From Bipalium vagum (Eukaryota): a stretch of 34,683 bases of DNA. Position numbers and translations under genes: made by a program. Shown here in pieces: positions 3,820 through 33,523 of the stretch. The notes beneath the pieces are model-generated. The model was not told the DNA's origin. It saw only the letters and a list, made by a program, of their open reading frames with translations, and made no database searches. Location of the stretch: the NCBI GenBank assembly GCA_037834085.1, contig JBBMKC010215029.1, positions 1 to 34,683 on the forward strand, written 5' to 3'. Within the stretch, counting starts at the first letter, position 1; each line of letters opens with the position of its first letter.

Positions 3820-6800
3820 GTAAATAATCTATAAAAAATATCTGGTTGTAGGAAAATAAAAGTACTTTAATATTGAAAAATACTTTTATGTAAGAAAATA
3901 TTAAGATGAGATTAATTGTACTTTGAGGCTTTACTTTTAATTTCCTTTCATGCATTAAATTGAACTTAAAATATTGCGCATATCCATTTTAAAATTAAAT
4001 AAAATAAGTTTTGTGTTTGACTTAATTTTAATTAATAATGGAGTTTTAAATTACGAGAAAAGATGATTTTATTTTGTGGCTCAATATATAGCTAGTGTTG
4101 TCATAAGTTCTGTTATCATAAGTAAATGTAAATCGATAAAAATAAGCAGTTGTAAAACAGACTAGCTTATTGATTGTTCAATAAATTAGGGCGTTTTTCT
4201 CATCAATCGATTATTATTTTCACTCGGTGAAGATGTAATATTTTTGATAAAAATCTACCAAATTCGCTTCTACCTGTTTTGTTTAAATAAATCAATGTAA
4301 TCATCAAGTGATTATTATTATTATTAAAGATTATTAAGAAATATTATTTTAATAAATTTAATAATGTTCAATCTAAACCTTATACTTTTATAAATTTAAA
4401 GCCATATTTTCTATAAGGTAGTTAATTGAAAAAAGGTTATTAAAATGAAAATTAGTTATAATTATCGTCAAATATATATTACTCATCAATTTTAAAAGAA
4501 AATCATATAGGAGTTCTAACAATATATGTCAAAAAGAAATTTGTATTTCCCCAAACACGGCTTTGGAAATTAGATATTTAAAAGCACAAGAATTTCGGTT
4601 ATTAAAATATCTTAGGATATGTTAACTCAACACGCAATAATAAAGAAGACCCAAAATTCATCGCAAACTACTAAACATTTTCTTTTGTGCTCGCTATGTC
4701 ATTATTGATTCTCTGACAGAAGAAGACTGACAAATCAGTGAAAAAGATATAATATTGGATTTAAATGAGTTAAAATTTAGAAAAAGAAAAATGAAAAAAA
4801 ACATAGAAAAGTCGACATTGAATTTAAGGTTGATTAGTAATATTGCAGGGTATTTTCTCCAATAGAACCCATTTACCAAGAAGTGTGAGTCTTTATACCC
4901 AGCAATATTTAAACAATTTTGATGCTAGGTTATAAACGAGAAATTCCAGTAAATCCTGATAGAATGCGGGTGTTCACTGAAGTGAGTTTTGTCCTGAAAA
5001 ATTCACTGACTCTACTGATATCATATATAATGGGATCTCTCGTCTATGCTTCACGTAATGAATTATATACTATCCATATCACAAAGAAGAAATTTAAGAA
5101 CCTTTATATCTCTACCATGAGTTATTACTTAAATTATATAGAATGAATTAATATTATATAATTCACTTTAAAAAAAAACTTGATTTTTTGTATTTTCATT
5201 TATTTTTTTCACGTTTGTTGTAGTGCAATAGTTGGAGAATGAATACGTCTTAAATCTAAACAGTTTGATAAAATCTGTGTATTATGTTGTCACATGAAAT
5301 GTCAGATTTCAGTAGTTAATTTTTGCAAATGCTACAATATTTTATAGTAAAGATTTAGAAATAAATTATAATGTATTTTGGAGTTAATATATTGGGTTGG
5401 CAATTAAGTCCGTTCGGTTTTTTAAATGAAATGAAATAATTGCTTATTGTGGAAAAAATTTATTAATTTGAAGCAAAATTATAATGCATAATTAATTTTG
5501 TATTTCATAAGATATATATATTAATCAATTATTGTTTAAGTAATATCATTATTTAACCAACAAAGCAAATTGTAATATGGGAGATAAAATGGTGCATTTT
5601 AAACACATTTCTTTATATTATATTAAAAAAGGCAAAAGAGCTGTGGATGTTCATAAAAAATTTGCCGTTTTTTGGGTATGTCAGAAATGGTTTGAAAAAT
5701 TCCGTTCTGGAAAGTTTAGCATGGACGCTGCAGTCGCTCCCCGGAGATTAAATCAGATGATATCAAAGCTAATCCAACCCAGACGGTTCGGGAAATAGCC
5801 ACGAAACTCAAAATATCACATACATCTGTTGGAAAACATTTACATATAATTGGCTACGTTTCTCAACTTACTGTATGGGTACCACATAAACTCACCGAGG
5901 GCAATTTGACAGCACGAATATCAATCTACGATTTGCTCCTAAAACGGCAAGAGAGACACCCATTTTTACGCAATTTGGTTACTGCTGATGAAAAATGGAT
6001 TTCTTACGACAATGTAGTGCGTAAGAGATTATAGGGACACAGTTCTGAGCCACCAAAAACAACATCAAAAGCAGTATTACATCCGAAAAAGATAATGATC
6101 TGAGTTTCGTGGGATTATAAAGGGGTCATCTTCTATGAGCTGTTATCATCTGGCACAATGGTTGATTCAAATATTTAATGCTCTCAATTAACTAAATTGA
6201 ACAAAGAAATTTCCAAAAAGCGTCCAGGGTTATCAAATCACAAGGGCGTTGTCTTCCAACACGACAATGCCAGATCTCACATCTCAATGATAACTTGGAA
6301 AGAATTAATGAGCCTTGGGTGGGATGTTTTACTACATCCACCATATTCCAGTAACTTGGCACCTACAGACCACCACTTATTTTGGTCGTAGAATTCTTGA
6401 AACAGGAAAACTTTCAATAATGAGGAGTCCACCAAAAGGCATCTTGGTTGGTTTTTTGAAAATAAACCTCAGGAATTCTACGAAAGAGGAATAATGAAAT
6501 TGATAGAAAGATGGAGGGAGGTTATTGATTAAGATGGACTACACATCATTGATTGATATTGTTTTTATCAATAAAAATTTTCTATCTTCTAAAAAATCGA
6601 AGGGAATTAATTGCCAACCCAATATTAAAAAATGGTATTTTTATATTTGTTTAGTAAAACGTTTTAGAAAATATCAAGAATGACGTAAAAATTGACAAAC
6701 AGCACAATTTACTTATATGTATATGTATAGAAATTACGACACAGCTTTAAAAGCTATTGAAAACATTAATTTAGCACTCAGAAAAGGTACAGGTTATGAA

Positions 6801-9800
6801 CATTCAGTTAGACGGTTATATGTGAAGAAGAGAATAAAACTCGATCAGACAAAAATCGTAATAGGCCCAGATGCATAACTGAAAATGACGATTTAATCAT
6901 AGGTATAGCAATAAATTCAACTCAGACCGATCGGTATCTTCCTGAAACATTCATTGTTAGTCTCAAGACAATTTTAACAAAATCAAAATTAAGGTGAATT
7001 ATATATTAATATCTTAGAAATAGAACTTGTTAAACGATGAATCAAATAAAAATTTTTATTGATTTCGCATATTTCATCATTTTCAATCGATGATTTTCCA
7101 GATTTCAAAAGATCACAAACATTCCACGTGTCTTTGATTTCTTCCTCGCTATAGGTATTTTTCAATTCCAAATGCTGTAAATGCCGTTTGAATAATGTCA
7201 TTTTAGCTATCAGTAAAACAACTTGCAATCATCCTTCAATGGAGAACATTATTAAATTTTGAGTTTAGTGTAATTACATTCGATACCATCAAATTATCAC
7301 AAAAATTAAAAACTTACATTATATTTCGGAAAATCTGTTTCTTAGAAAAATGCTAATTGAATATAATTATATATGATATAATATATGAATATAATTATAA
7401 CTATAATTATATATATATATCGGATACTTACATTTTATTACACATTCTATATGTATTATAAAATAGAAAAAATAGTAAAATAATCACTTCATTCTTTTTG
7501 TGTATAATGTTTTTTTTAATAATTTTTTTAAAATAATTATTAAGAATTTGAAATACCAGTGAATAAATTTTTATATTTCATCTAATGTAATGTAATTGTA
7601 AATTGAGAAGTGAATTTATTGTCTCTTTATGCATTGTAATTATTGTTAAGTGGTAATTTAGGATATGGGTGAGCCACATGGCTTTATTAAGAAGTTAGCT
7701 TCTTCCATATAGGTTAGGAAAATCTCAACAAATCATATTCAATAAACCGTTATTAAGAATATCCACATATATAGAAATATAAAATAACTGTCTTATGATT
7801 ATTTGTAATAATAAATTGGATAATTAACTTTGAAATTTCAAATTTGGAAATCAGTGTGTTTCAAATTACGAGATCACATTTTTTGAATAAACATTATTAT
7901 TATTATTATTATTATTTATTTTATGAAATTGCTGGATGTGTTTTAAATGATATAATAATAATAAAATAATAATAAATAATATAATTATAAAAATATAATT
8001 CTTTTCTAAAAATTGAATTAAAATTTTTGACATTTTTATTTCAGATAAATCAAGATCTAATTCTTTCTGCAATCAATATGACAAAATTAAGGACAGCAAA
8101 AGATGCTTCAACTATCTGTACAGATCCCGAGACTTTAGCTCTGAGACTTACGCATATGAAAGCAAAAACCTCTACTTTTTGAGTAATTTATTGAAGCTTT
8201 TTATTTATACCATAATTTAATCATTTACTAAAATCAGAAAACAATATTCTCAATAAATCAATGATTTCATAATGATAATAATTTTATCAATATTTAATAA
8301 TTGATCAGGATCAGATGAGGCAGTGTTTGAAATTTTGGGAGATTACTTTTTAAGATTTTATACAAGAAATAAAATAAATTTTTGTCTTAATAATGGTGAA
8401 AACTTTTCAATTAAATTAATATTTCTTATAATTAACCCAGAATAGTACAAAGAGAATAAAGTTTAAGAAAATAGCAGGTTAAGTGGTTTCTAAATCAATT
8501 TAATTATTTTTCAATATAAATTTTTCGATTTCGCGATGATATTCGCCATTGATATTTTATATGAAATTAAATCATTTTCGAGCAAACTCTTATAAAAAAA
8601 TTATAGTAATGTTTCATTTGAAACCCGTTTTATCAAATGACCATTCACTGATGGTTTTAGATATATCAGCTTAGACAGATAATAGAGATTCTGAGAAAAC
8701 ACTGGAAATGTGAAAATAGAAAAAATAGGCTAAAACATATTCTTCAAGATTTTTCAAGAGAATTGTGAATGTGCTACAGAATTTTTATTACCTTTGATTA
8801 TTTGAAGAGATAAAAAATAAGATTGTTATGAAAACCAAAAATTCTGTTGTATTTCATTGATTTTTGAAATAGAGAATCATTTTATGGAATGCATTATAAT
8901 TAAGAAAGAAAAATAGAAAAAATTGTTATTGGAAATCCAATACTAAAGAAATCTCGCAATACATCCCGAAGCCAAAATTAAAATAAAATAATTATTTTTT
9001 CTTTATATACAATAATATTGCAATTGATGTAATGGACACTGGTTTATTTTTATAATAGTATATTTATTTTTTAATATAATATTAATTTTATATTTTATGC
9101 AATATTTATTTAGACAATAATATAGTCATAAAGAAAGATCATAAATATTTTATTACCTTTTGGTATTATTTTTTTCTAAAACTTTACTGATGATAGTTAT
9201 TATTATATTATTATATACGTAATTCTTATTGATTTTATTACTTAAGTCAAAAATAATGATTTTAAAGCACTATAAGTTAGATTCCCAATTTTCACTGGAC
9301 CCTTTGAAAAATTATGCTATGAATCTAGACTCACAAAGAGTAATCAATTGATGCTTCTTGCGCTTCCGACATTTAACAATAAACTCTTTCAACGTTTTCT
9401 GGGAATTTCAGTAATTTTCTAAAATTTTGAGGTCTTCAGGGCTTTCTAATAATTTTTAAAATATTCTTCTGGCTTCTCCAAAACTTTGAATTTTTTTTTG
9501 ATTCTCAAACTCCCATTATTTTTCTACCAAACAAAAGAAAAGTAATTTGCCTTTCATAGATGTATAGATAGGACGACGACGACAGAAAATCTCTACTTCA
9601 CAGAAGAGACAAAAAATAATAAAAAATATATTTTCCAGATTCTAATAGAGGTCTGACGTTATCTCAACAGCAAGATAGCATTATTTTAGGAAATTAATTA
9701 TTTATTATTAAAATAGAATCTTCTTTATTACAGTACTATTAATAAAAGTACTTTTATAATAATAATAATAATAATTATTATTATTATTAAGTTGTAAAGA

Positions 9801-12800
9801 AATAAGTTCCAGTTTTAACATTTATCTTCAAATGAACAAATCACAGTTTAAACAAAATAGAAACCATTACAACAATGTACACATTTCTCTCAACAAGCCT
9901 ATTTATCCTGATTTGATAAAAATCTGGATTACTAGATGTTACAAATTCTTCAAAGGCTTTAATAACAGCATCATCATCGGGGAAGATTCTCTTGCTGAAG
10001 AACTTGTCCAAATGTTTGAAAAATAATAATCAGTAGATGAGAGGCCTGCTGAGCAGGCTTGAAGAGTGGAGAATTTCAATATTAAGTAGGTTCAATTTTT
10101 GTATGGTATATTTCGTGACATGTGGTCTGGCGTTATCTTGGGGAAGTTTTGGGCCTTTTCTATTAACCAAGGCAGAGTAGATGTACTTCAGTTTTTGATT
10201 CATTTCTTTGATTTTCTCACAATACTTTTGTCTGTAATTGTTTGACCACATCTCAAGAATTTATAATGGATCAAATCAGTGAAACACCACCAAACAATCA
10301 ACTAAGCCTCCTGTTGGTGCAACTTAGATTTCATGTCTAAGCACTGCTGAGAATGTTGGCTGTTGTCGTACAGGGCCCATTTCTCATCAAATGCCACAAT
10401 GCGATCAAGGAAAGGTTCCTTTTTGTTGCGCAAAAGAAGTGCTCTCGACATATCAAAACGACATAGTTTTTGCTTTTTTTATCAACTCGTGACTTTCCTA
10501 TTTCTCGCAAATGGTTGGAAACAGTCATGGCTGAAACATCTAGCGCACATCTAAACTCTGGAATAGTTGTACGCTGATCACTCTCAACCAGTGTCTTCAA
10601 ATCGTCATTGGTGTTAGAAGATTTTTGTCTTCGACCATCTTTATCTTGAATATCATCATCTCCATTTATAAATCTCTGAAATCAGCATTGAGCGATATGT
10701 TCACAAGTGGTATCATCTCCAAATATTCGGTTCAGATTTCGAGGGTTTTGTGCAGTATTACCACCAATATTGTATTCATAAAGGAACACTGGTTTAATCT
10801 GAATATCGTTTTTTTCTTTATTAAAATTTTTTGTTGACTTACCGTTTTAAAAGATTTTGCCTTAAGATATAAGGAAATATATGTTAATAAAAAAATGAAT
10901 TAAACAATTCATAATGCAAAAATGAAGTCATAAAAACAGAAATTAATTTCTTTACAATCTAATAATAATATATTATTCCTTCAGACCCCGAGCGGTCTCT
11001 TCGTTTTGTGCCTTTGGCAAACCAAGAAATATTAATTTCAAATGAAGAATATAAATGTTAGATTGAAAAAATAAATTTGTGTATTTAATAATAATAAAAA
11101 TCAATTTACATATCATGGAGTAATATTGATATATAATAATATTGAATAATAAGTTCATATTTTAACAAAAATTTTAACAATTCTAAAATTAAAAGTAATA
11201 ATATTTTTATGATTTTTGTTTACGAAAATATTATTGTCTAAAAAATATTTCATAAAATATAAAATTAATATTCTAATAAAAAAAAATAATAAAAAATCAT
11301 TAATCATAAATCAGTTCAATAATATTGAATTATCAGTTTAAGCAAAAAATTTAAGCAAAAATTAAAAAAATTTTCTTGGAATATTTTAGTGATCATTTAA
11401 AAATAATATGTACTATTACAGTTTAGAATATCTTATACGTTCATATTTTCGTCTTATTAAGAAATATTTCAAAATTTAATGAACATTTGGTTTGAGGTTT
11501 ATTCAAAAGTTGATTTTCAGAGTTATGTTAGGAAGCCAGTATACAAATCATCAACAAATAAAAATAAAACCCTTTAATTTGTTAAAGCCATAAACTTAAT
11601 TTGTATTTAATTATGAGCAGTCAAATCTCGTTCGATATGATTTTTAAATAAGAACATTTTTATTAACAGTGATCAAATAAGCAGAATTATAACAGAAATC
11701 CTGCTATTTGAAAATTGAGTAGTTTGACTAAAATCTCAAGCATAAAATCTATTTTTTCTTATTTTAATTTTGTAAAATGGATGTCCATTACATTATTGTG
11801 AAGTAAAATGCACTTTAAGATAAAGAAAGTTATTGACGATTTCAGCAAATTAAATTAAGAACCACAAAGAATTGCTCAAATCATTAAAATATACTTAAAT
11901 TCACGATTATAAACAAAAGCCGTCTCTTTTCCATCAATGGAAGAAATTGCCAAAATAAAACTGAGTAAAAATATAATTTTCGTTTATACATATTACAGAC
12001 TTTTACAGAAATTGATTTAACAAAACAACAGTGAGCATAGTTGAATAAACAGCCAAACTTTAGTAAATCTATCAATAGTCAGAAAATCTCATATTTGGGT
12101 ACAGAGAAGAACCTGCTTGTTGTTTCTTACTAGAATAGTGATTATTCTCAGTTTTACTACAAAATTGAAATCTAGAGAAATATAATTGGTTTGCGAGAAT
12201 TGATTGTGGAAAAGAATACAGCCACCAACAAAGTACAATCATTTATTCCTTTAATTTCATAAATCGATGTTGGTTTTGTTCTGTGAATTTTTAAAATATA
12301 AATATCAGCTCCACTTTCATGACTTTTGATTTTCAAAATATTGTTTATTAAATAATGATAAATAACAGACGACAACAATCACAAGTACGACCCTCTTGAC
12401 AAATAAAGTATTGAAAAGAAATTAATGTCGTGTCTGTAGACATTTTACTTAATTATGATTTTTCTATACTTAATAAATTCCTTGTTAAATAACCAATAAA
12501 GATATTTCAGATTTCACAAAAAAGTAAAATGAGGGTTACATTAAAATTTGTTTCCAACATTGTAAATATTAAGTGTCTTTATTGCTTTCTAATCATTTTA
12601 TATTGGTTCATCATATTTAGGAATTGTTTATGTAAATTAAATATTTCACGAGGTGCAAGTTTACTTAATTTTGCAATTATGTTCTTAGCCGTCTTAAAAT
12701 CTTTCTTTAAGTTAATAAATTAAAAGTAATTCGTCTTTTTAAATCTCAAATATTTGATAGATGACTGTAAACTTAAATGTCGTTATGAATTACTGTTTAA

Positions 12801-18800: not shown

Positions 18801-21800
18801 AGATGATGATGTTTTTTAAACCTGTGAATTTTGGTTTCCCAAATTTCGGACAAGAATTTTGACCGACCAGAAACAAATCGGGACCCATTTAAAGGTCAAA
18901 TCTGCCGTTCTTCAACTATCTAGATACAGATTCATCGCAAACGCTAAAGAAACTCCACTAAAAAGCTTGGACATCCCAACAAAAGATTTCATATCAATTG
19001 AGTGCCATAGGAAAAACTGAAAAATATGGAAAGTGGATATCGCATTATTTGAGTAAAAAAAATAAAGATGCTCGTATCTTGGTGTTCTCCAACCTCTTTA
19101 ATAAACCGCGAAAAAAGTCTTTCTTGTGAAAAATAGTCACTTGTGATGAGAAATAGATCTATGAAAATCCTAAAAGAATAAAAAATTGGATAAAATTGAA
19201 CACAATAGATAGATAGATAGAACACAAAAACATCCGATTCACTCAAAAAGGGTATAATGTATATTTGGTGGGATATCAATGGCGTGCTGTATCTTGAACT
19301 TCTCCAACCGGGAGAAACGTTTTGTGGTGAGCACTATAAACATCTGTTGACTCGATTGAATGCAGAAATCGATGTAAAACGTCTATTCAAAGGCAAAGGC
19401 CAATGTCCAGTAAAATTGCTTCATGATAACACTAGGCCTCACATTGCAAGATGGGTCAAGAATATTTTAGTAACATTTGGTTGGAAAGTTTCGGAACACC
19501 TGGCGATGCCTGATATCACTCCATCGGACTCCCATCTCTTTCGCTCAATGTAAAATTCTTTGATTGATATGCACTTCAAGACCTTTAAGGGCATCCGAAA
19601 ATGGGTTGATAATTTCATCAAATCAAAAATCGAAAACTTTTTAAATGCCAGAATTCATCCTTTGTTTGAAAGATAGCTTAAGGTGATAGACTATAATGTT
19701 GAATATTTTGATGACTAATTGTACCTTGTTTATTTTTATAATCAAGGTTATATTTTTAAAAATCGCTTTAAAACTTATTTCTATATGAAAACAATTTAAT
19801 TTATTAATTTAACTAAAAATTTTAACTCATTTCTTAAAAAGCCGAAATCATACTAATACACCTAATACCATATAGTTGCAACAGCAAAGCTAAAACTTAA
19901 TATTACTTTGAGATTAAATTAATTATTTAAAACAAAAACAACATGCTGCTGCTATTTCGAATGAGATCTAAAATTTTTAATGTTTTTAATAACTTTGTTT
20001 TACAAAGTATTTTTTTATACAAATATCATAATTTTTTTATTTTATACTTCTATTAATAATTAAAAAGGGAAACGAGGCTTATTTCTTTTATCTTATTATA
20101 AAATAAAATATTCATTGTTTTTACAATATAAAGTAATTTTTTAAGCCTTCATAATCAAAAATATACACAAGCTTATGGTTAAAAATGTTTTATTTTCTTG
20201 TGGGATTGGTTTAAGTTTATCCAGAAGTGTAGTTTCACATCTTATTTGTTGATCTGATTTGATAGATTCTTCTCACTGGAGAAATTCTTAGATTCATATA
20301 TCAAAATCTCTCAGAAAATATGATTATTAATTCATCATTAATTAAATTAAATTATCAAATCACGTTTATTTATATCAATAAGGTTTATATTATCGCATTC
20401 AAAGGTAACCTTTTTTATTTATAATATTATATTGCATAGGAAAGAAAAGTATGGAATTATGATTGACGGTTGTGAATTTAGAATAATTTATTCTTTACAC
20501 TATTTTCTATTAAATCTGCGACAACTTTATATGCTAAAGTAGGCTTTTGTTATTCAATAGAAAATCGGGAGTGCTCAACCTCACTATACACTTATATATA
20601 TGTTTTAAGCAGATTGATATAGAATTGAATGAACTGAAGAGAAGATTACTTAATAACGCTTTTCCAAATTGGAAAATTGAAAAAATGATGGAAGATACCG
20701 TGATTAAATATTTGAAAAATTAAGAATGCAATGTGAAGAAAGAAAAACAGAAAAGTGAATATAAGAAAATTATTAAAATTCCCTATTCAGAGGGATTCAA
20801 GATTTTTATAATTAAAATATTACAGACAAAGAGTGAAGAAGGCCTGAAAGTAATATCTGTAACTGCGAAAACGAAGAATTTTTAAAAAATCAAAACAGTG
20901 ACTCCAAAACCAATGCAGGCTTATATCGCGTATAGATTCCAATGTCATAGATGTGATCATCTATACACAAAGTCACCTAAAGACACGAATTAGTGAGCAT
21001 TCTCATAAAACTAGAAGAGGTAAAGTGTTGGGTCATACTATTAATTGCAAAGAAAGACAAGGAAAAAAATGCCAATGAAAATGAGTTTAGTATAGTAATG
21101 AACCACTTTGATAATGATGAAGAAAGAAAATATGCGAATCATTAGTAATTAAAAACTAAAACCAGAAATTAATTCACAAAATGGAGAAAGCAGGAATCAA
21201 TAGATGATTAATGTTTCCTTTAATTACTATTTTTAAAAGTTTTAGAATTAAAAAGGTTATTTTTACTTTTGTCCAATAATAATGTTAATAATTTTATTAA
21301 AATCATGATAGTGATATCATTTGAAGATAGACATTGAAGAAGAATAAAATTGACTGAAGAAGATCTAAATGAAGAGATCGAAACATGTTTCAAGATAGTA
21401 GTATAAATAAAATTTTGTATGTTCAAAAATGTTTTTTTTAATATATCTATTGGTTAGATGAATGAAGAATATAAGAAATTCTTATTAATATTTAATTATT
21501 CTTCTTATGAAAATAAATACAGGATATATTTCAGTTAATTTTGAGATTTTAATTTTTTTTAATTAAGATAGTTTTTTAACGCATAAAATACTTTTATTTA
21601 ATTGGTCGACCAACTTTGAAAATGAAAATTTTTAAAAGATTTTTTTTTATTTAATTCCAGTAATTATCAGAGTCGAGATCATAAGGTGTACATCAAGGTT
21701 TGTAAAATTTGTAAAATCATCAAAGAGGTGATTTGAATACAGTATTTTTGGCAACTTCAAAGAGATTCAATCGATATTGACCAGAAAATATGACCAGTAT

Positions 21801-23362
21801 GGACACATGGTCAGATCAAGTCTAAGTGAAGTAAATTAAGCATGTTATGAGATTAGCCTTCAGTGATAAGGAAAATATAAATACATTATAAGTCTTTAAG
21901 ATAGAGAAATTGATATACTCAGTACAAAAATAAGAATTAAGAAATTAATTATCGAAGTTTCATATTTGCTAAACCTTAACTATGGTTCTCATTTAAATGA
22001 AGATGTCGACCAGTTAGTCTATTAAATCGAAATATACTGACTTCTTCAAAAAATTATGAGAATAGCAAAAAGAAAGGTTAGAACAACTAACGATGGCAGA
22101 AGAGTCAGTCAACTGTAGTCATAGAAAATCCGATTTGTTTCAAGACGTACGGAAAGCAGTAAAGAACGATCTTAAACTGTTAAAAACATCATAGGCAACT
22201 AGTAGAAGATTCTATAAAAATTCATATTAATGGATAGTAATGAAGGCCAGATAGAAATACCAAATAAAGATATGGTGGGCAGTTTATGGAAGACAGCAGA
22301 CTGAAATAGACCAGATGAAACTAACACGTAATTATTCTGCGCAAAAATGTATTATTTTTATTTCTTTGAATCAGTTTTGAGCAGATATCATATTCATTTG
22401 TTTTTGATAATCAGTTAATAAATGCGGTATCCACTTATTTAACTTCTTAACCTTGTCAATTTCCTTTAGGTGTTGAGAAACAGTTGAAATAGATACTGAT
22501 AATTTCTTGTATAAATTTTTTACTGTTTTCTGTGAGTTTGATTCAATAATTGTGTTCAAATCATCATTGTCCACTGAGGTTTTCCGCCTACGGAAATTTT
22601 CTAAGACGGAATTTGGCAAACCACCAACGGGTAGTTGATTCTGCTACATAACCATTTCCGAAAGCCTTGTTTATATTTCTCGTTGCATCTGCCGCAGAAT
22701 TTCCAAGTTTAAATTCGTAGAGATATATTGCTCTAATTTTCTGGTTTGTTAAAATTTTTAAAACTGTGCCAAAAAATGCTTTAATTTAAAGCATTAATTT
22801 AAAAGTTTTAATTTAAATGGAGATGGCGGATGATCAAACCATGATTAGATTATAATTAAACTTAATGAATCCGATGGATGACAGTAGAAAACCATCAGAT
22901 AAATTAACTGGATATTTATGAAGAAATGTAAAAGACAGTTGCAGATGTATAGGATCTTATTGATGAACCGAGTGAGATAAGTAATTATACTTTCCTAGAA
23001 TACTTAGTCAAATGACAAGAGGTAAAGAAAATATTTTAGTTATTAATTTTTTTTGATATTATAAAGGTTACAAAGAATAAGAAAATTGGGTGGAGAATCC
23101 TATCTGTAAATATGAATTCTTTTGACGATGAACATAAACAATGCAGAGGAATATTACTGACAAGAAAAGAGCAGTAAAGGAGCAAAGGAAACCATTAAAA
23201 CAAAAATGTAAAGATTCAAAGAGTCTGATAGGACATAAGGAAAACGATGCTGAATACAGAGATGAATATGAACATGAAAAACTCTGATAAACTCACTTCA
23301 GGCGTAGAATGTAGTAATCAAAATCAGACTGAAAAAAAGAATCGAATATGTGGTGAAATATG

Positions 23363-23411
<49 letters not shown>

Positions 23412-25446
23412 TAATAATATCAATTTTTATGAATCTTTTTGATAGAGGCAATGCGTTAGTAATTTGGAATGCACCGGTAAAGACAAGTACAACTTAAGGG
23501 TAATATTAAATTGGATGGTAATATACTCGAATTACCAAACGAAATTTAGAGATTTTTTGATGCAGAAACATGGAAGGTGTTATATTTATTGAGCATACCA
23601 AACAAAAAAATTGTAATTATTGGAAATTTGTTTACAAAATACCAATTTCAGTATGTGAGATATGGTATATCTTAAGATAGCTGATTTAAAGAAGGTGGAA
23701 GTGGAGAAAGAAAAAGTAGTTACAATGTTAAGAAAGGCATGTAACATTTCTTAAAGATCAAAACAGTACATAAATAAATAATATCAATTGTTTTACTTAA
23801 TAAAATGAAACCCGTAGAGGCCAGGTTTGTCAGGAAATAAAGTACATTACAATGTTATGTAGCAGTGTGTGCAATCAATCATAAATGCATGTTTGTAAGT
23901 CTACAGAATATCTTAAAAACGACCGAAGTAGAAAAATGGAAATTAAAATGGCTAATTATGTCAACTCTGAACTAGATTATCTATTATTTGCTTAAACAAT
24001 CAGAATTGGTACTAACTGATTGTCTAATCAACAGAGAAGTTCTTAAAAATCGATTCGATATGATTATTATCAACTAAGATTTAGTTTCTAATGTTAATGT
24101 AGGATCAGAAAGTTTTGTAATCACTATCATACTTTTTCAATGGTTTTTGTCCTTAAAATCGAACGGGCAATCGTACATTAATCGTTGGTGACCTTGGCGA
24201 ATCCAAAATATACATATATATCGTAATTACTTTATTGTGAATTTATTTAATTCTGAACATTCACAATAGGCTAATTACTTTTTTGTCAATTGAAGTCGGA
24301 AATAAGGAGCTGGATGAAGTTTTTATCTAAGCATATTTGATTATTTATGAGAGTAATTTAAATAAAATAATGGTAATTGTGCTTTCGATTAAACTCAAGA
24401 ATTCTTTACTATATCATAAAATTCTCGTCAATTTTATAACTTTTCAAAACTCGGCATTTAGATATATAGCAGATGGTTAAATTATTGTTGGTGGTTTAAA
24501 TAGTTTTTGTTATTTAAAAAATGCTTTAACTTATTATTGGAATCCATAATTATATCCTTCTATAAAAATCGCTGAATGTAGCACAATTTAAATAAAATTA
24601 AAATATTTTAAATAATCATGTCTTTTTGCTCTACATATAGATAAAGTATTTAACTACGTATAAAGTATTTAGTCAACACTAAGACGAGCGGTGGACAATG
24701 ATTTAAAAGGGAAGTTCTACGTCATGAGAAGAAGACATTTTGTATCGGCAAAAAGCAAAGAAAATCATTTAAGTGTTTTTTAAACAAAATCAAGCATCCT
24801 GATCATCCAAACAGGTTAGGGTTCTTTTCTGATGAAAAAATTTTTACTCAAGATCAAAAGGTTAATAGGAGGAACGATTGATGGCTGTGCTCCAGTGCTT
24901 CTGAAGTCCCTGATGTTATGAACACCAAGTTTCCATCATCTTTAATGATATTGGGTGTTGTGAGCAACGAATGTTATGTTATGCCTCCATATTTCTTTCT
25001 AGACTTAGAATTAATAAATCTCTTTATATCGAGTGTCTGGATACATATGTGAAGCCCTGGATTGAAAAAATTTTTAAATATGATTTAAATCCTTTGGAAT
25101 ATTTCGTATGGAGCGTCGTAAAGAAGGAGATGAACAAACATCCTCATAATACCAAAGATTCATTACGGACTTCTTTAAGTTCTGTTATGATAAATATGAA
25201 AAAAAAACCATTTGATCGCGACTTGTAAGCTTTTCAGAAGCCACCTTGAAGCTGTAATTGACACTGAAGGCGATTGAATAAATAAAACTTGTGTACTTAA
25301 AACAAATAAGTTTCTAATATTGGTTAAAAATATACATTCTTTTCATTAAAAATATTACTTACCTTTAATATTAATTTTTGTCCTCAAATAGCTGGCGCAC
25401 CCTGTATATTAATTAATATCATTTAATTATACGTACGAATAAACTA

Positions 25447-25486
<40 letters not shown>

Positions 25487-28093
25487 TAAAAAAATAAATA
25501 ATAATAATGATAATAATATTAATATTAATAATATCTCTTTATTATTACGGTTATGCCAAATTCAGTTGTAAGAATTCGATATGAACGATGTATCCCGCCC
25601 CGGATGCCCATCTCACATTGATCCAAACACTATTGATTGTTTTACCGAAAGGAATCCGTCGAACATGGTTCGGGAAATCGCAAGGATACTGAGATTCGTT
25701 TCCAGACTTAATGTCTGGGTACCGCCTAAATTAATGCCGACCAATTTCTTGGTACATGTGGGATGTTTTGCCTCATCCTTCATACTCACTGGACTTGGCT
25801 CCTATCGAATATCACTTGTTTAGGACGCTGCACAATTCCTTGAATGGGAAAACATTCAATGATGATTAGTCTGTCAGACTCCCATTGACACTTTTTTGTT
25901 AATAAGCTCCAGGAGTTCTACGAATGTAGGATCATGAATTTGACCGAAAGATGGAGAAAGGTCGTATATAATAATGCTGAACATATAATTGATTAAAATT
26001 ATTTTTGTCAATAAAATATTTTGATGTTATCTTTTCATTAAAAAGTACACGAACTTTCTTGCCAACCCAATACATTGTTCCTAGTTAAATTAATATTTTG
26101 AAGATAAAATTCAGAAATTATCTTTACTTTTACTTATGTTTCATTTCAATCTATTGTCCTTTCAAAAGAAGTCCGCAAACTTAAAGATGTTATTAGCGAT
26201 TGGAAATGCAATTTTCATTTCAAAATTTAATAATTTTTTTATTAAGCATTATTTTCTGTCTTTGCGAGCGCTATTCAGAAAGAAAAAGTAAAACTGCTTC
26301 AAGTGGACGAACAGTGTCACAATTATACTCCTCTCAATATTCCTTCAGAGGTTTGTATCATCAATATTTATGACTAAAAAATTTTATAAAATTTATTACT
26401 AAGAAACTTATTTAGTAAAGCTAATATTTTAATTTAATAATTAGAATTTATTTTATTTTTTTTAAGTGTATTCTAAATTAAAGACTTCAAGTGTTAGCAT
26501 GCTTTAGGAAAACTAAAGGCTATTTCTAAATTATTTGAATAAATTAATTTCTAATTAGTTTCAAAATGTCTCTTGATCATCTAAAATAATTTATATGATA
26601 AAATCGGTTTTTCATTAACAAAATTTTACAATTTTTTTTTCTCTTACTTCTACTTCTATTACAATGGTAAAAAAAATTTAGGGTCATGATTTGTCTTCTT
26701 CCAAATTTAGATTTATATAAGTTGATTTTAAGTAAAAATTAATTAAAGAATATAATAATGCCTCTTAATGAAGTTAACACTTTTAAAATAAAAATTAACA
26801 AAATGTAGAGTTGTAACTTGTTTGTTCGGTGAACAGATAAATCATTTATGTTTATTTAAATCGATCCACTGAAATAAATTTGGTAATATAATTTTGAATT
26901 CAAATCTAATCGACCTTGCTTTAAATAAATGCTATTCACTAGAGTAATTATTCAGTTTTTACAAGCTGGTAATATTGTCGTAATATTTAGATTTAACGTG
27001 TCAACATTATGTTGTTAATCGAAAAAGTTGAAATTCAGCAGAAATCTCTCTTTTTAAACTTTGTAACATGATTTATTTAATTTATTCAAAAATTTATAAA
27101 ATTATATTTGAACCATAAACTAAATCATTAATAAATGATTCCCATGTTTGTTATTGGTGAGTCTATTTTATTTTCGTTCTATTTCTTGGCTTAGTTGTGT
27201 TTGAATTTTTTCAAGGATCTTCAAAATCTGTATTTTTACTTTTAAAATTTCATACACACATATACTTTATATTTAGCGTACTTAATTTTTAAAATAATTA
27301 AAATATTCATCAGGTCTGATTAACTTTAACCTTCAATAAAATGTTGCAAGGTGTGTAGGCTCTCTCTTTAGATAAAATCTTTATTTATCATGAATTTTAT
27401 GCATTCCAAAAAGATTCAATTTTGGGGATAATGTATAATGCAAATGTTACTATGATACATCGACACAGTAACGTGTGCTTGTGTACCCGTACCTTCTCAC
27501 TTTTAAAATGTTGTGTTCGTTTCATTCAATGAAATCTTATCCACTAAATCAAAAAACCCATGATAATACTTTATCCGCTCTCTGTGAACTGAATCAAAAC
27601 TTCCACAATAAAACTTTATAGGTAAAATACAATCACAGCTAAATATAACAAGTCACTCTATAAATCACCCCAATAATCCATAAGTTCGATAACCAAAAAT
27701 GTCAAATAATAGTCTCATCAAAAATAATGATAAAAATACAAAACTACTAAACAAAGAGAGAGATGAAAGAGGTGATCACAAACAGATGAGGTTCCGAAAA
27801 GTAGCAAGCAAATAAACGATCTCACCAAGAGCCATAAGGAGTCCCCTGGTTGCCCTCTAGGTCCTTTGCTGGTCACCTAGGGGTTCCCAAGCTCGCTGGG
27901 TCCCTTTGTTAAATTCTTTTTCGTTGTAATAACCACTTGCTAGAAGGAAAACCTGGAATATTTGAATTACCTCGCAGATTCGAATTGTTCTCCCAGATTT
28001 AAATTGTCTCTAAAAGTTTTTGGGCAAATTTATGGAAATAGCCGTCTCTTTATATTACCGTAGGGACTGAGCTACGATCACCAATTATTCTTA

Positions 28094-28139
<46 letters not shown>

Positions 28140-31100
28140 ATTATTATGAACTTATTATTAGTATTTATAATAATTATTATTATTATAACCCAACAAAATT
28201 ATAATTATTTAATATTATTTGTTTCATATTTAGAATAATATTGTAGATTTTGACATAACTATTAAATATTGTGACATTAAATTATTTTATTCTTAAATAA
28301 TTTATTTATATTAAAAAGGATATATTTCTGCCAAAACTAATCCACCAATATTTGTTTTTCAAATTCTGTGAACAAAAATAGACAAAAAGTTTTGTTTCTT
28401 TAAATGTATTCTCAATCTGTGAAATTTCAAAATGTTTTCTTTTGTATTTAATGTTCCAAAGGGCAAATATATGGAAATTGCATAACCAAAATCTTTACTA
28501 CATGTCGAAATACTTACAATGATGAATTTTTTCCACACATTAGAGGAAATAATTATAAATCCATTCAGTTTTCTACTATAATTTTTTTACTAAGGTATAA
28601 CTTAATCATTTAAGGAGATCAAAATTTGCTTATAGATTATTTGGAAAAGATTTTTGGTTTGAATGTTGAATTTTTATTAAAATTTGTCTGTTTAAAAGCC
28701 ATAGTTTTATAAATCATGCGAAAATAAGTATAAATCCAACCAACCAATGTTTAAATATTTTCAGCTTCGAAATTTTATTAAATCTGGTAAATCACCTTAC
28801 ATGTGATTTAATTTTAAATGTTTTATAAATATATTGTATATAATGTCTTGAACCTAAATCGACATTTTGAGAAAATCTGGATTTGGAAAAAGGAAGAATG
28901 CAACTGAGATTTTCTGCCTGTTATTTAATAAATTATTAAAACATCACATTTTTATAGTTAATTTCAAAATATTTTCAAGTAAGTTCAAATAGAAAATGTT
29001 TATTTTTTTAATTTGAGTAAAAAAATTTATAATTATTTTTTCCACTGTATAAAATAAAATGAAGTCCTCATGCAACCTAATTAAAATGCAGTAATAAAAT
29101 AAGTCAAAGATTTACTTTAAAAAAGTGTATTAAAATATGTAAATTTACTTAATTTTACTAATTTTCCTAAATTATTTAAATTTACTGCCCAGTTACATAG
29201 TTATCTATATAAATAGATAAACAAAAATGACCCAGGGGATATCTGAACGGAAGTGTCACCAAACATGGTAAATATTATTTAAAAGAATAATTTATTAATT
29301 TTATTTAAATAAATTAAAAATTATCTAACAATTATTAAATAATATAAATATTTAAAGTTACAACAATAAAATAATATCTCTATTAACAAATGTCGTCAAT
29401 TTCAGATTATATCATGTTTCAAATTTTTATTCTTATTCTACAAGTTTATGAAACATAGGCAGGATTCATTACAAAAAGATTAGTTAATCATTATCACATT
29501 TGACTTTAAGAGAAAGACGTAGTGAAAGATGATTAGACACCAGATAAAATATTAATTGAAAGATGTATTAAAATTCCGTGGATTAATATATATTTTTTAT
29601 ATATTATTTAGAAAGTATACTATTCATGGACAGTTACTATTTTCGATTAATTTATTTTAAAAAGCTAAAAAAAAACAAAATTCATCTTTTTGCAAATTAA
29701 ATATCACAAAATAATTGATTTTCCATAATTTAGGAATATAAAAATTTATTTCCCTAAAAATTTTTTACTTTACATAGAACTCTACAATAATAACATCATT
29801 TTTTTTGATCCATTTTTTTTATTGTTTTTAATGAAATAAAAGAATTCCGGGTAGAGACATCTAAATAGTTATCGTGAATAAGAATGATAAATTATTTCAT
29901 TGTCTTAATTCCCAAGAGAAATATAACGATAATCAAAATGGAAATTATGATTAGTTTCCTCTTTAGAATAAATCATAAAATATTTCATCGTGAAAAATAA
30001 TTTTGAAATTATATAAAAGTGTTATTAAATATGTTTAAGTAAATATAAAAATATTTTCAGGGTTTAATAATAATAATATATAATATTAAAAATAATATAT
30101 GTAATAATATATTTAATAATAATAAATAAATAAATAAATCAAATTAGTAAATCAAAAAATAATAAAAATATTAATTTAAAATAATATATAATTATATAAC
30201 AATAATAAATCAAAATAAGTTTAATAATAATATTAGTAAAATACTTTTCAAAATTATAATTTTTTGCCCGATAATGACTTTTTTGTCCTAATCATGTCGA
30301 GATGGCAAAGAAAGTCGCCTGAATGAACTTTTTGTTTGGCATCTAATGCTGTCAACTTAAATTTAATTCTGCTCTAGTAAGTCGCCGTTGAATGAATGGT
30401 TTATTATGAAGAGGATTTCTATTAAGTTCAAATTTCTCAGAAAATGAAAATATTTAGATGTTACGTACAATAAATACTTCATAGAATCCACGATGAACAA
30501 TGTCTTGAAGACAAAGAGCGGTGGTTGAGACCACGAAAACAAACAGAGTGCAAGATAGAGAAATTATTAAAATTTACCTGTTAAATAGACGTCTAACAGC
30601 GAGAATAATAGCTGAAAAATATAAAGAATTTAAGGAAGTGAATTTCAGCGAATGTACCATAAAACGCAAAACCGTATTGTTTTGGCTTGTACGGTCAAGT
30701 AGCTGCAAAAAATGTTTACTAAGAAAAGTTAATAAAGCAAAAAGACTGAGATGGCCATCAAACATGAAGATTGGACATTTAACCAATGTAAAAAGAAAAG
30801 AAAAGAAAAAAAAGATGAATGGAACTTCCAGTTCTTCTCTTGTTTCTTTTTTGGTTTCTCCTCACAGAACGTTTGTTAAAAGATTTTTTGCAGAAAGATA
30901 TATCAAAATAGTTTGATGCCTACAGTAAAGTTTGTAGGTGATTCTGTTTGTGTTTGGTGATGTTTTGCAGGAGAAAATGATGTTTAATTGCAAAAATAGG
31001 AATCATGACAAAAGAGGTTTATAAGGATATTTTGAAAAAGATGGTTAGCCATCTAGGAGACGATTATTTCAAGAGAAATATATATTTATGCATGACAATG

Positions 31101-32085: not shown

Positions 32086-33523
32086 TTAGGTTGTTCAGAA
32101 AGTTTTGCACGTTTCTGTTTACATACATTTAAATTGTAAATATTTCAAAAAACTTATTTAAAGATATTTAAATATCCGATGCGTTTACTTCTTTTTTCCA
32201 ATAATGCCGAAGGATACCACGAATTACCATGTTGTCATTTTTCATTTCTTGCTTACTTATTTAATCTAAAATTATATTTTATTTAAAAGTAATCATAAAC
32301 AATGCACTCAGAGAAACAAGAGCTACAGATTGATATCAAATTTATTATAAATATATGTATTTTTAATGTTAAAATTTTTAATTAAACTTTTCATTACAAA
32401 ATGGTAGATTACTTATGGAACAGCCTAATATTATTAAATAACTATTTATATAACTATATATTGAACTCTTTGAAATATTGATCTGTTTTACTTTTAAATT
32501 AAAATTTGATTATCTTTTTTCCATTATAATGTAGGAAGTGTCGCAATTTGCGCCAAATTTATTTTTATGATTTTCAACTCTGTACAACTGCTCGAAAAGT
32601 TAATGAAGTTTGGGTCCATGGTACTGTAACTTGGTACTAGAACTTCCAAAATGGAGATTTATCCCTTAAAGATGCAGAACGAATTGGTTATGCGTCAAAA
32701 CTTGATAACAAAGATTTAAAAGCTAGTGGAAGAAAATATGATAACAGCAATATGAAAACTTGCCAAATGTCTTGATATAAGTATTGGACAAGTCATATGA
32801 AGCAAATAATTAAGACAAAGAAACTGGACATGAGTTAACCATAAAAAAATGAGATGAACTTAGAACTCATTTTGAGGAAATAAAAACGAGCCATTTCTTC
32901 ATCGTTTGATTACTAGCAAAATTTTTATAGTTGCTCTATAACAATATGAAACATTCAACACAGTGATTACGCATCTGCGAATGTCCCAAGTCCTTCTCCA
33001 AACCGAGTCAACATGAAAAAAGATAATGATTACCTGGAAAAGGGAGAAATGATAAAAACAGAGAAATACTGCATAGAAATTGATATTATGCAAGAAAAAA
33101 TGAAAAGAATGTACCCGGTATTGATCAATGAAAAGGCCCAATTCTATTGTATGACAATGTCCGTCAGAACATAGCAAATCAAACCATGGATAAGCTGAAA
33201 AACCTAAGTCACGATATTCTGTCACAACCACCGTACTCGCCCGATATCTCACCAACTGATTTCCATTTATTCAAACATTTACAAAATTATTTGAATGAAA
33301 CAAAATTTCATAACGAAGAGATGCTAAAAAGGAATTTGAACAGTTCATTGCCTCTAGGTCTACCGAATTCTACCACATATGAATGGATAATCTACCAATT
33401 CATTGGTAAACGTGTGTAAACGATAATGGTTTTTATTTTGATCAAAAAATTCTTGTTTCAACTGACTCATGCTGTTTTAAAAAGAATGTACAAAAAACGT
33501 GAGAAATTTTCCGAACAACCTAA
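32086..33523 (+). mobile_element. Defective mariner (DD34D, cecropia-like) carrying a nested TIR-ended fragment
   Basis: TIRs TTAGGTTGTTCAGAAA / TTTCCGAACAACCTAA|TA; YDNVRQN-34-D, PPYSPDISPTDFHLF. An inner piece ends TTACTTATGGAACAGCCTAATA near 32430. Confidence 0.92.

Follow-up and report, generated by a model that had tools for sequence, protein, structure and literature searches.

Planarians renew all of their tissues from stem cells. Grohme et al. 2018 are reportedly also a source for Burro/GYPSM1, the giant gypsy-like LTR retrotransposons of these animals. The planarian element Burro encodes Gag, SUMO-like and BCL2-like domains, an in-frame env, a protease (PR), a dUTPase-like domain and ankyrin repeats, and its env matches the fusion glycoproteins of mononegaviruses (PMC6431247). 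Arkhipova and Yushenova 2019 saw in it the first env to be placed between gag and pol in frame, and they also recorded decaying Burro copies in Dugesia japonica (PMC6431247). Loss of PIWI raises BURRO transcripts in differentiated tissues (PMC8532177). Chary and Hayashi 2026 reported elements of the order GAG-ENV-POL with a gB-type ENV from Nematoda, Bryozoa and Platyhelminthes, including nine in flatworms; the elements listed are intact and often multicopy, and the terms 'Bcl' and 'polyprotein' are absent from the main text of that paper (PMC13524379). In nematodes, env also lies ahead of pol in non-canonical ERVs (Sacco et al. 2022, as cited in PMC13524379). The layout that we discuss here is already published for planarian Burro and for the flatworm GAG-ENV-POL errantiviruses (PMC6431247, PMC13524379).

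The window, which denotes the whole stretch of DNA analysed in this study, is an entire contig of 34,683 nt with ~25% GC, taken from an assembly of 440.8 Mb across 272,664 contigs. No host genes were recognised anywhere in it. With a probability of about 0.9, we consider one region of the window to be a dead fragment of an LTR-type retroelement (likely Ty3/gypsy and Burro-like), likely from a flatworm, in whose better copies a fusion glycoprotein of predicted class III lies in frame between gag and pol.

The Env fragment and its surroundings

Searched as DNA against the genome, positions 23440-24200 had 16 matches, which were the window itself and 15 paralogues at 67-75% nucleotide identity. 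P0008, a natural 482-aa paralogue frame, matched window positions 23757-24089 with 55.8 bits (E 6e-11), whereas 100 shuffled windows reached 26.9 bits at most. Two independent database proteins also matched, P0006 at the same place with 33.5 bits (shuffle maximum 26.6) and P0007, marginally, with 27.3 bits (shuffle maximum 26.2). The window fragment itself showed no glycoprotein match in Pfam, either in six whole frames (stops as X) or in six short pieces, so its link to the family runs through the paralogues. PF24664 (Monjiviricetes_fusion) was found in 7 of the 14 paralogue frames scanned, which were all seven env-region frames (E 2e-9 to 3e-23), and on paralogue frames overall at E values down to 1e-90. 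In the family search of the genome, 68 of 1562 candidates were scored and contained 86 PF24664 matches; the 14 control genomes had none. The fossil Env is real, and it belongs to a kind of element that is already known.

Table 1. Features of the window and of frames behind the integrase in related loci (positions refer to the window unless a locus is given).
Feature	Position	Strand	Evidence
Probable CCHC zinc-knuckle remnant of Gag, decayed and weak	21786..21830	+	71% nt identity to a knuckle-like stretch of paralogue L071, E 0.012; position as expected
Polyprotein spacer between Gag and BCL2-like domain	21988..22275	+	63-68% nt identity to L018/L019, L020/L021, L016/L017 and L030; best E 7e-26
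Inserted mariner transposase fragment, foreign to the retroelement	22324..22755 (right edge approximate)	-	HTH_48 Mos1 domain, E 2e-15
Remnant of helical BCL2-like domain preceding Env	22756..23120 (right edge approximate)	+	60-67% nt identity to paralogues
Linker ahead of signal peptide	23120..23320	+	Paralogue alignment
Internal signal-peptide region, ending in NAL	23321..23460	+	Aligns with paralogue segment SNMWLPMMIL..DRGNALVAY, E 7e-7
(ATA)19 microsatellite breaking the signal-peptide region	23363-23419		Tandem-repeat listing
Fragment of Env ectodomain, class III (gB/chuvirus-type)	23458..24116	+	Paralogue alignments; fold read from paralogue
Decayed Tc1/mariner pieces	5720-6034, 10337-10681, 19221-19553, 24690-25230, 25570-26030, 30509-30916, 33132-33419		Pfam support for three only
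Post-integrase frames of paralogues	L016:1170-1616, L022:6146-8802, L026:659-3046	- (L016)	No Pfam match

The Env fragment corresponds to about residues 130-353 of the 482-residue frame P0008 (Table 1). Offsets against L021 and L016 indicate that ~375 nt of Env are gone directly after the end of the signal peptide, and homology to the paralogues ends at ~24116, ahead of the last ~130 ectodomain residues, the transmembrane (TM) helix and pol. In ungapped alignments to paralogue frames, the coding frame runs in the order 2-1-2-1-3-2-3 over 23321-24089, which amounts to six switches, and the fragment contains several stops. Its coding peptides are NAL, VYKIP..C, IVLL..RF, MANYVN..D and ELV.TDC.INREVLKNRF.MII.N, and the cysteines read in the coding frame belong to ECTG, CN, VC, LQC and TDC. 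The peptides from which the preliminary description had recognised an envelope protein all occur within 23298-24074 of the + strand, spread over three frames, but some of the cysteine-containing ones are off-frame. SGVEC...ICG is a frame 3 reading of a stretch that the paralogues encode in frame 2, and it falls ahead of the signal peptide, across the end of the linker. IWNAP is an off-frame reading of the piece after the deletion, for which coding frame 1 gives NLECTGKDKY, and the cysteine of LRKACNI, which had been taken as conserved, stands opposite a non-Cys residue in the paralogues.

Colinearity with the same paralogues extends upstream over 21988-22275 and 22756-23392; the upstream remnants span ~21790-23460 overall, interrupted by the mariner insert, and the dead fragment measures ~2.3 kb. 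The retroelement-like remnants previously noticed upstream do come from a retroelement, but they are gag-side and BCL2-like rather than pol, because env sits between gag and pol. The repeat listing of the window contains no LTR-like pair, and the copy, which is truncated at both ends, lacks a primer-binding site and pol. The window copy has thus lost most of gag, the ~375 nt of Env and everything beyond the middle of the ectodomain, has gained a microsatellite and a mariner, and is unable to encode a protein. Since the four closest paralogues are 88-92% identical to one another over the env core, the window copy, at 67-75% to the paralogues, is among the more decayed ones.

The contig depth over the mariner insert was ~6,000-8,500, compared with ~25 beside it, a difference of some 300-fold at ≥95% identity (run X1), with loose ends at 22324, which points to a recent insertion into a fossil of greater age. 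The contigs of that run left the env piece largely uncovered, which counts neither for nor against it. The insert likely has thousands of near-identical copies, and it showed no pair of terminal inverted repeats. Elsewhere in the window, decayed pieces of Tc1/mariner transposases are numerous, and Orf78 and TMEM154 matches of Pfam in window frames were rejected as products of microsatellite poly-Ile. A separate dispersed repeat occupies 20608-21125 (62% to L075, E 5e-32); its broken frames, which gave no Pfam match, look similar to the GIY-YIG endonuclease of Penelope-like elements.

Organisation and predicted fold in better-preserved copies

Twenty loci from the genome-wide PF24664 family search were examined. 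The order in the paralogues is Gag (CCHC), BCL2-like domain, signal peptide, Env, TM helix, PR, reverse transcriptase (RT), RNase H (RH) and integrase (IN), and the longer ones (L016, L019, L021 and L022) run through it with a spacer after the CCHC Gag and a helical domain ahead of the signal peptide. L021 has PR, RVT_1, RT_RNaseH and Integrase_H2C2 in sequence and zf-CCHC at E 0.003, and ~6.5 kb separate its CCHC knuckle from its integrase zinc finger; L019 has rve. Retrotrans_gag was above the cut-off in L060 and L065, of which L060 keeps env before pol. The Pfam set of the 17 frames scanned comprised Retrotrans_gag, RVT_1, RT_RNaseH, Integrase_H2C2 and rve, and no Pao-type family was listed among these frames. 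Env, TM and PR occupy one uninterrupted frame in L033, L034, L035 and L042 (929, 1027, 937 and 1054 aa, respectively), and two of these four frames run on to the start of RT. In L033, L035 and relatives, a hydrophobic helix comes next after the ectodomain, and the paralogues share a DDDEYL..C motif upstream and a segment behind PR. When an Env-PR frame was searched against PDB sequences, the DDI1 protease was the single type of match (E 0.0035). The preliminary description had also suggested looking for other copies in the genome, which brought up better-preserved paralogues with Gag, Env and pol, although none of those fetched is complete.

In C52321, the spacer, Env, PR and RT lie in one frame with two isolated stops, and Retrotrans_gag and CCHC are found upstream in other frames than Env. 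Because of these other frames, continuity between Gag and Env rests on overlapping frames of different copies and on database proteins, from which we infer a single frame from Gag to IN. A protein search of 1.84 billion representatives gave 958 matches at E ≤0.001, of which 150 were listed and 18 were scanned for domains. Env was joined in one protein to PR/RT/RH/IN in four of the 18 scanned (P0011, P0013, P0019 and P0020) and to Gag/CCHC also in four (P0009, P0020, P0021 and P0023). An internal signal-like segment exceeded the hydropathy threshold in P0011, P0013, P0019 and P0020, and stayed below it in L002 and L072.

Pfam gave no match to ubiquitin/SUMO-like or dUTPase-like domains in the frames scanned, nor to ankyrin, BIR or MATH in those of the window's family. 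A sister env family in this genome (L059, which is C36350, L064, L065, L067, L069 and L077) has alternating protease-like and ankyrin segments between Env and RT, with up to three PR motifs, in the style of Burro, and P0006 and P0009 contain several PR domains behind Env. Among members of the window's family, the frame runs on beyond the integrase into a hydrophobic signal-like segment and frames that no Pfam family matches (Table 1), which possibly encode a second membrane protein or a secreted cargo protein; hydrophobic segments past the integrase occur in P0011, P0013 and P0019 as well. Beside an env fragment, L029 carries an intron-less La-like RRM frame of 329 aa (PF08777; 3305-4291, - strand), possibly a retrocopy or a single large exon. 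Integrase-like and small capsid-like frames beside env copies (L020:585-917, L020:1824-2282 and L024:5952-6284) have a possible resemblance to Polinton/Maverick pieces.

The model of P0008, built from a 90-row alignment, had a pLDDT of 91.6. All PDB structures listed as matches to it were herpesvirus gB (best E 6.7e-15, TM ~0.5), and its best matches in the viral library were chuvirus-like glycoproteins (E ~1e-34, TM 0.64-0.79, identity 18-20%). Env is accordingly modelled as a predicted class III fusogen with a gB-like ectodomain. A class III gB-like fold had been expected in the preliminary description and was found, on the model of this paralogue rather than on the window peptide, and the chuvirus-like glycoprotein named there agrees with these nearest viral structures. 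The identity of Env to retroelement-type frames was 34-61%, compared with 18-20% to chuvirus-like G. An Env tree was built from 50 of 120 cores, namely the eight of this genome and the top-ranked database proteins up to P0070 with ≥430 aa; it was midpoint-rooted and so speaks to grouping only, not to a donor. The eight rows of this genome and all 11 proteins of ≥1100 aa fell into a 23-row branch (support 99/95), and the 27 shorter stand-alone G proteins, mostly of ~650 aa, fell apart from it. The link to chuviruses therefore holds for the fold but not as a recent chuvirus capture; to judge from its sequence, the Env protein is that of a distant retroelement lineage.

The domain preceding Env is putatively BCL2-like, at a sub-threshold level. 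In paralogues it matched PF00452 at E 0.0087 and 0.00096, both below the cut-off, and schistosome BCL-2 gave its top natural PDB sequence matches (E 0.004-0.005). A BH2-like GGW/QGW motif is present in four of the aligned lineages or copies of this genome and in P0006, P0010, P0016 and P0021. The model of the domain was poor (pLDDT 60) and gave no Foldseek match at E ≤0.001, and 11 of 50 VIA rows had a Bcl-2 fold at Z 4.7-5.3, which is within the helical background. A BCL2-like domain ahead of env in such elements is already in print (PMC6431247).

Origin of the fragment and host

Chuvirus-like glycoproteins are the best viral structure matches (TM 0.64-0.79, E ~1e-34), and G insertions from Jingchuvirales are frequent in arthropods (PMC10084718), as would suit a non-retroviral endogenous element, in which the G mRNA of a chuvirus or another member of Monjiviricetes integrated alone beside unrelated transposon debris. 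However, the identity is 18-20% to chuvirus-like G, against 34-61% to retroelement-type frames, the Env tree sets the group apart from stand-alone G proteins, and the paralogues run on into PR-RT. The 1.6 kb upstream are moreover colinear with the spacer, BCL2-like domain and signal peptide of the retroelement, which largely refutes such an integration, and we regard it as very improbable. We regard as equally improbable the env of a BEL/Pao element (Anakin-like as in mosquitoes or Tas-like as in nematodes) placed after pol. An env of the gB/chuvirus type has been published for such elements (PMC13524379; PMC7642597), but in the closest four of the long paralogues (L016, L019, L021 and L022) Env comes ahead of PR, and the Pfam set listed for the 17 frames is of the gypsy type and includes no Pao-type family. 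Neither of the nematode markers PF01484 and SL1 was found, which is uninformative, as their controls were equally silent.

Capture of env genes by hosts is known in other systems. A syncytin-like fusogen domesticated by the host from such an env nevertheless finds no supporting point in the window copy and is refuted by its broken frame, with six frame switches and stops. The deletion takes the cysteines of two of the six near-invariant positions (C56 and C67), no TM helix is present, and the window copy, at 67-75%, has diverged further than is seen among the closest four paralogues (88-92%); domestication is thus next to inconceivable here. In line with the preliminary description, the fragment is best read as the env of a decayed envelope-bearing retroelement, given its 15 paralogues, the colinear upstream homology and the continuation of paralogues into PR-RT.

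The host was assessed from the mitochondrial code. A nematode, the initial candidate, was abandoned on the evidence of cox1. In the main cox1, on the best-scoring mitochondrial contig, all five AAA codons of the aligned part stand opposite Asn of the COX1 of the reference structure and six of eight ATA codons opposite Ile (both by eye), which indicates table 9. This code is used by flatworms and echinoderms. Together with the close resemblance to Schmidtea elements, it makes a flatworm, probably a triclad, the likely host, at the level of phylum, as the code is common to echinoderms. At least three types of cox1 were seen in the assembly (L053-L058): the table-9 main copy, a similar second type (L054), and the foreign-looking L055 and L057, which may be prey or contaminant DNA. 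The high copy number of the env family favours the main organism as its carrier over prey or contaminant DNA. The preliminary description had called a non-arthropod host notable: the host is likely not an arthropod, but such elements are not new outside arthropods, as they are published for flatworms, nematodes and bryozoans.

A proposed membrane-threaded polyprotein and related elements

As a dead copy, the locus carries little weight alone; it adds a further case of an element type already in print, likely from one more flatworm genome. The wider family holds some interest, since a frame that has env between gag and pol implies that the polyprotein is threaded through a membrane, which is unusual. 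In the living element, one polyprotein would be threaded through the ER membrane, with Gag and the BCL2-like part staying in the cytosol. Cleavage by signal peptidase would leave Env free in the lumen, the TM helix would bring PR-RT-IN back to the cytosol on the Env tail, and the element's protease would free it. The outcome might be enveloped particles capable of fusing with neighbouring cells, and the BCL2-like domain could have an anti-apoptotic role.

A fuller scenario is speculative, and we think it rather unlikely to hold as a whole: the genome would have carried at least five deeply diverged enveloped lineages with a single Gag-BCL2-Env-Pol polyprotein threaded through the ER in a flavivirus-like manner, infectious spread between somatic and stem cells, and a captured Bcl-2-like domain blocking apoptosis, and the compact family of the window may add another lineage of flatworms to those with Burro-type elements. 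Movement of such elements between planarian cells is a testable question, which is not advanced by the fossil in the window.

Compared with known systems, the Env resembles the G proteins of Chuviridae/Jingchuvirales and herpesvirus gB in its fold and Pfam family (PF24664). Unlike chuvirus-like G (18-20% identity, stand-alone, ~650 aa) and gB (10-14%), it lies inside a retroelement polyprotein. The position of env upstream of pol in a metavirus is shared with the nematode non-canonical ERVs, whereas the host phylum differs. Gene order and the gB-type fold are also those of the Platyhelminthes errantiviruses Smed_errantivirus_1-6, which have an HSV/gB-type ENV; judged by eye only over ENV domain I-II, the window's family is nearest to Smed_errantivirus_4 and L035 to 1/2 (PMC13524379 supplementary file 3). 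With Burro/GYPSM1, the window's family shares the CCHC Gag, a putative BCL2-like motif and the env in frame before PR, and the ankyrin repeats of Burro occur in this genome, in its assembly of 272,664 contigs, only in the sister family. In contrast to Burro, which has an internal region of up to 25 kb and ankyrin/BIR/MATH cargo, the window's family looks more compact.
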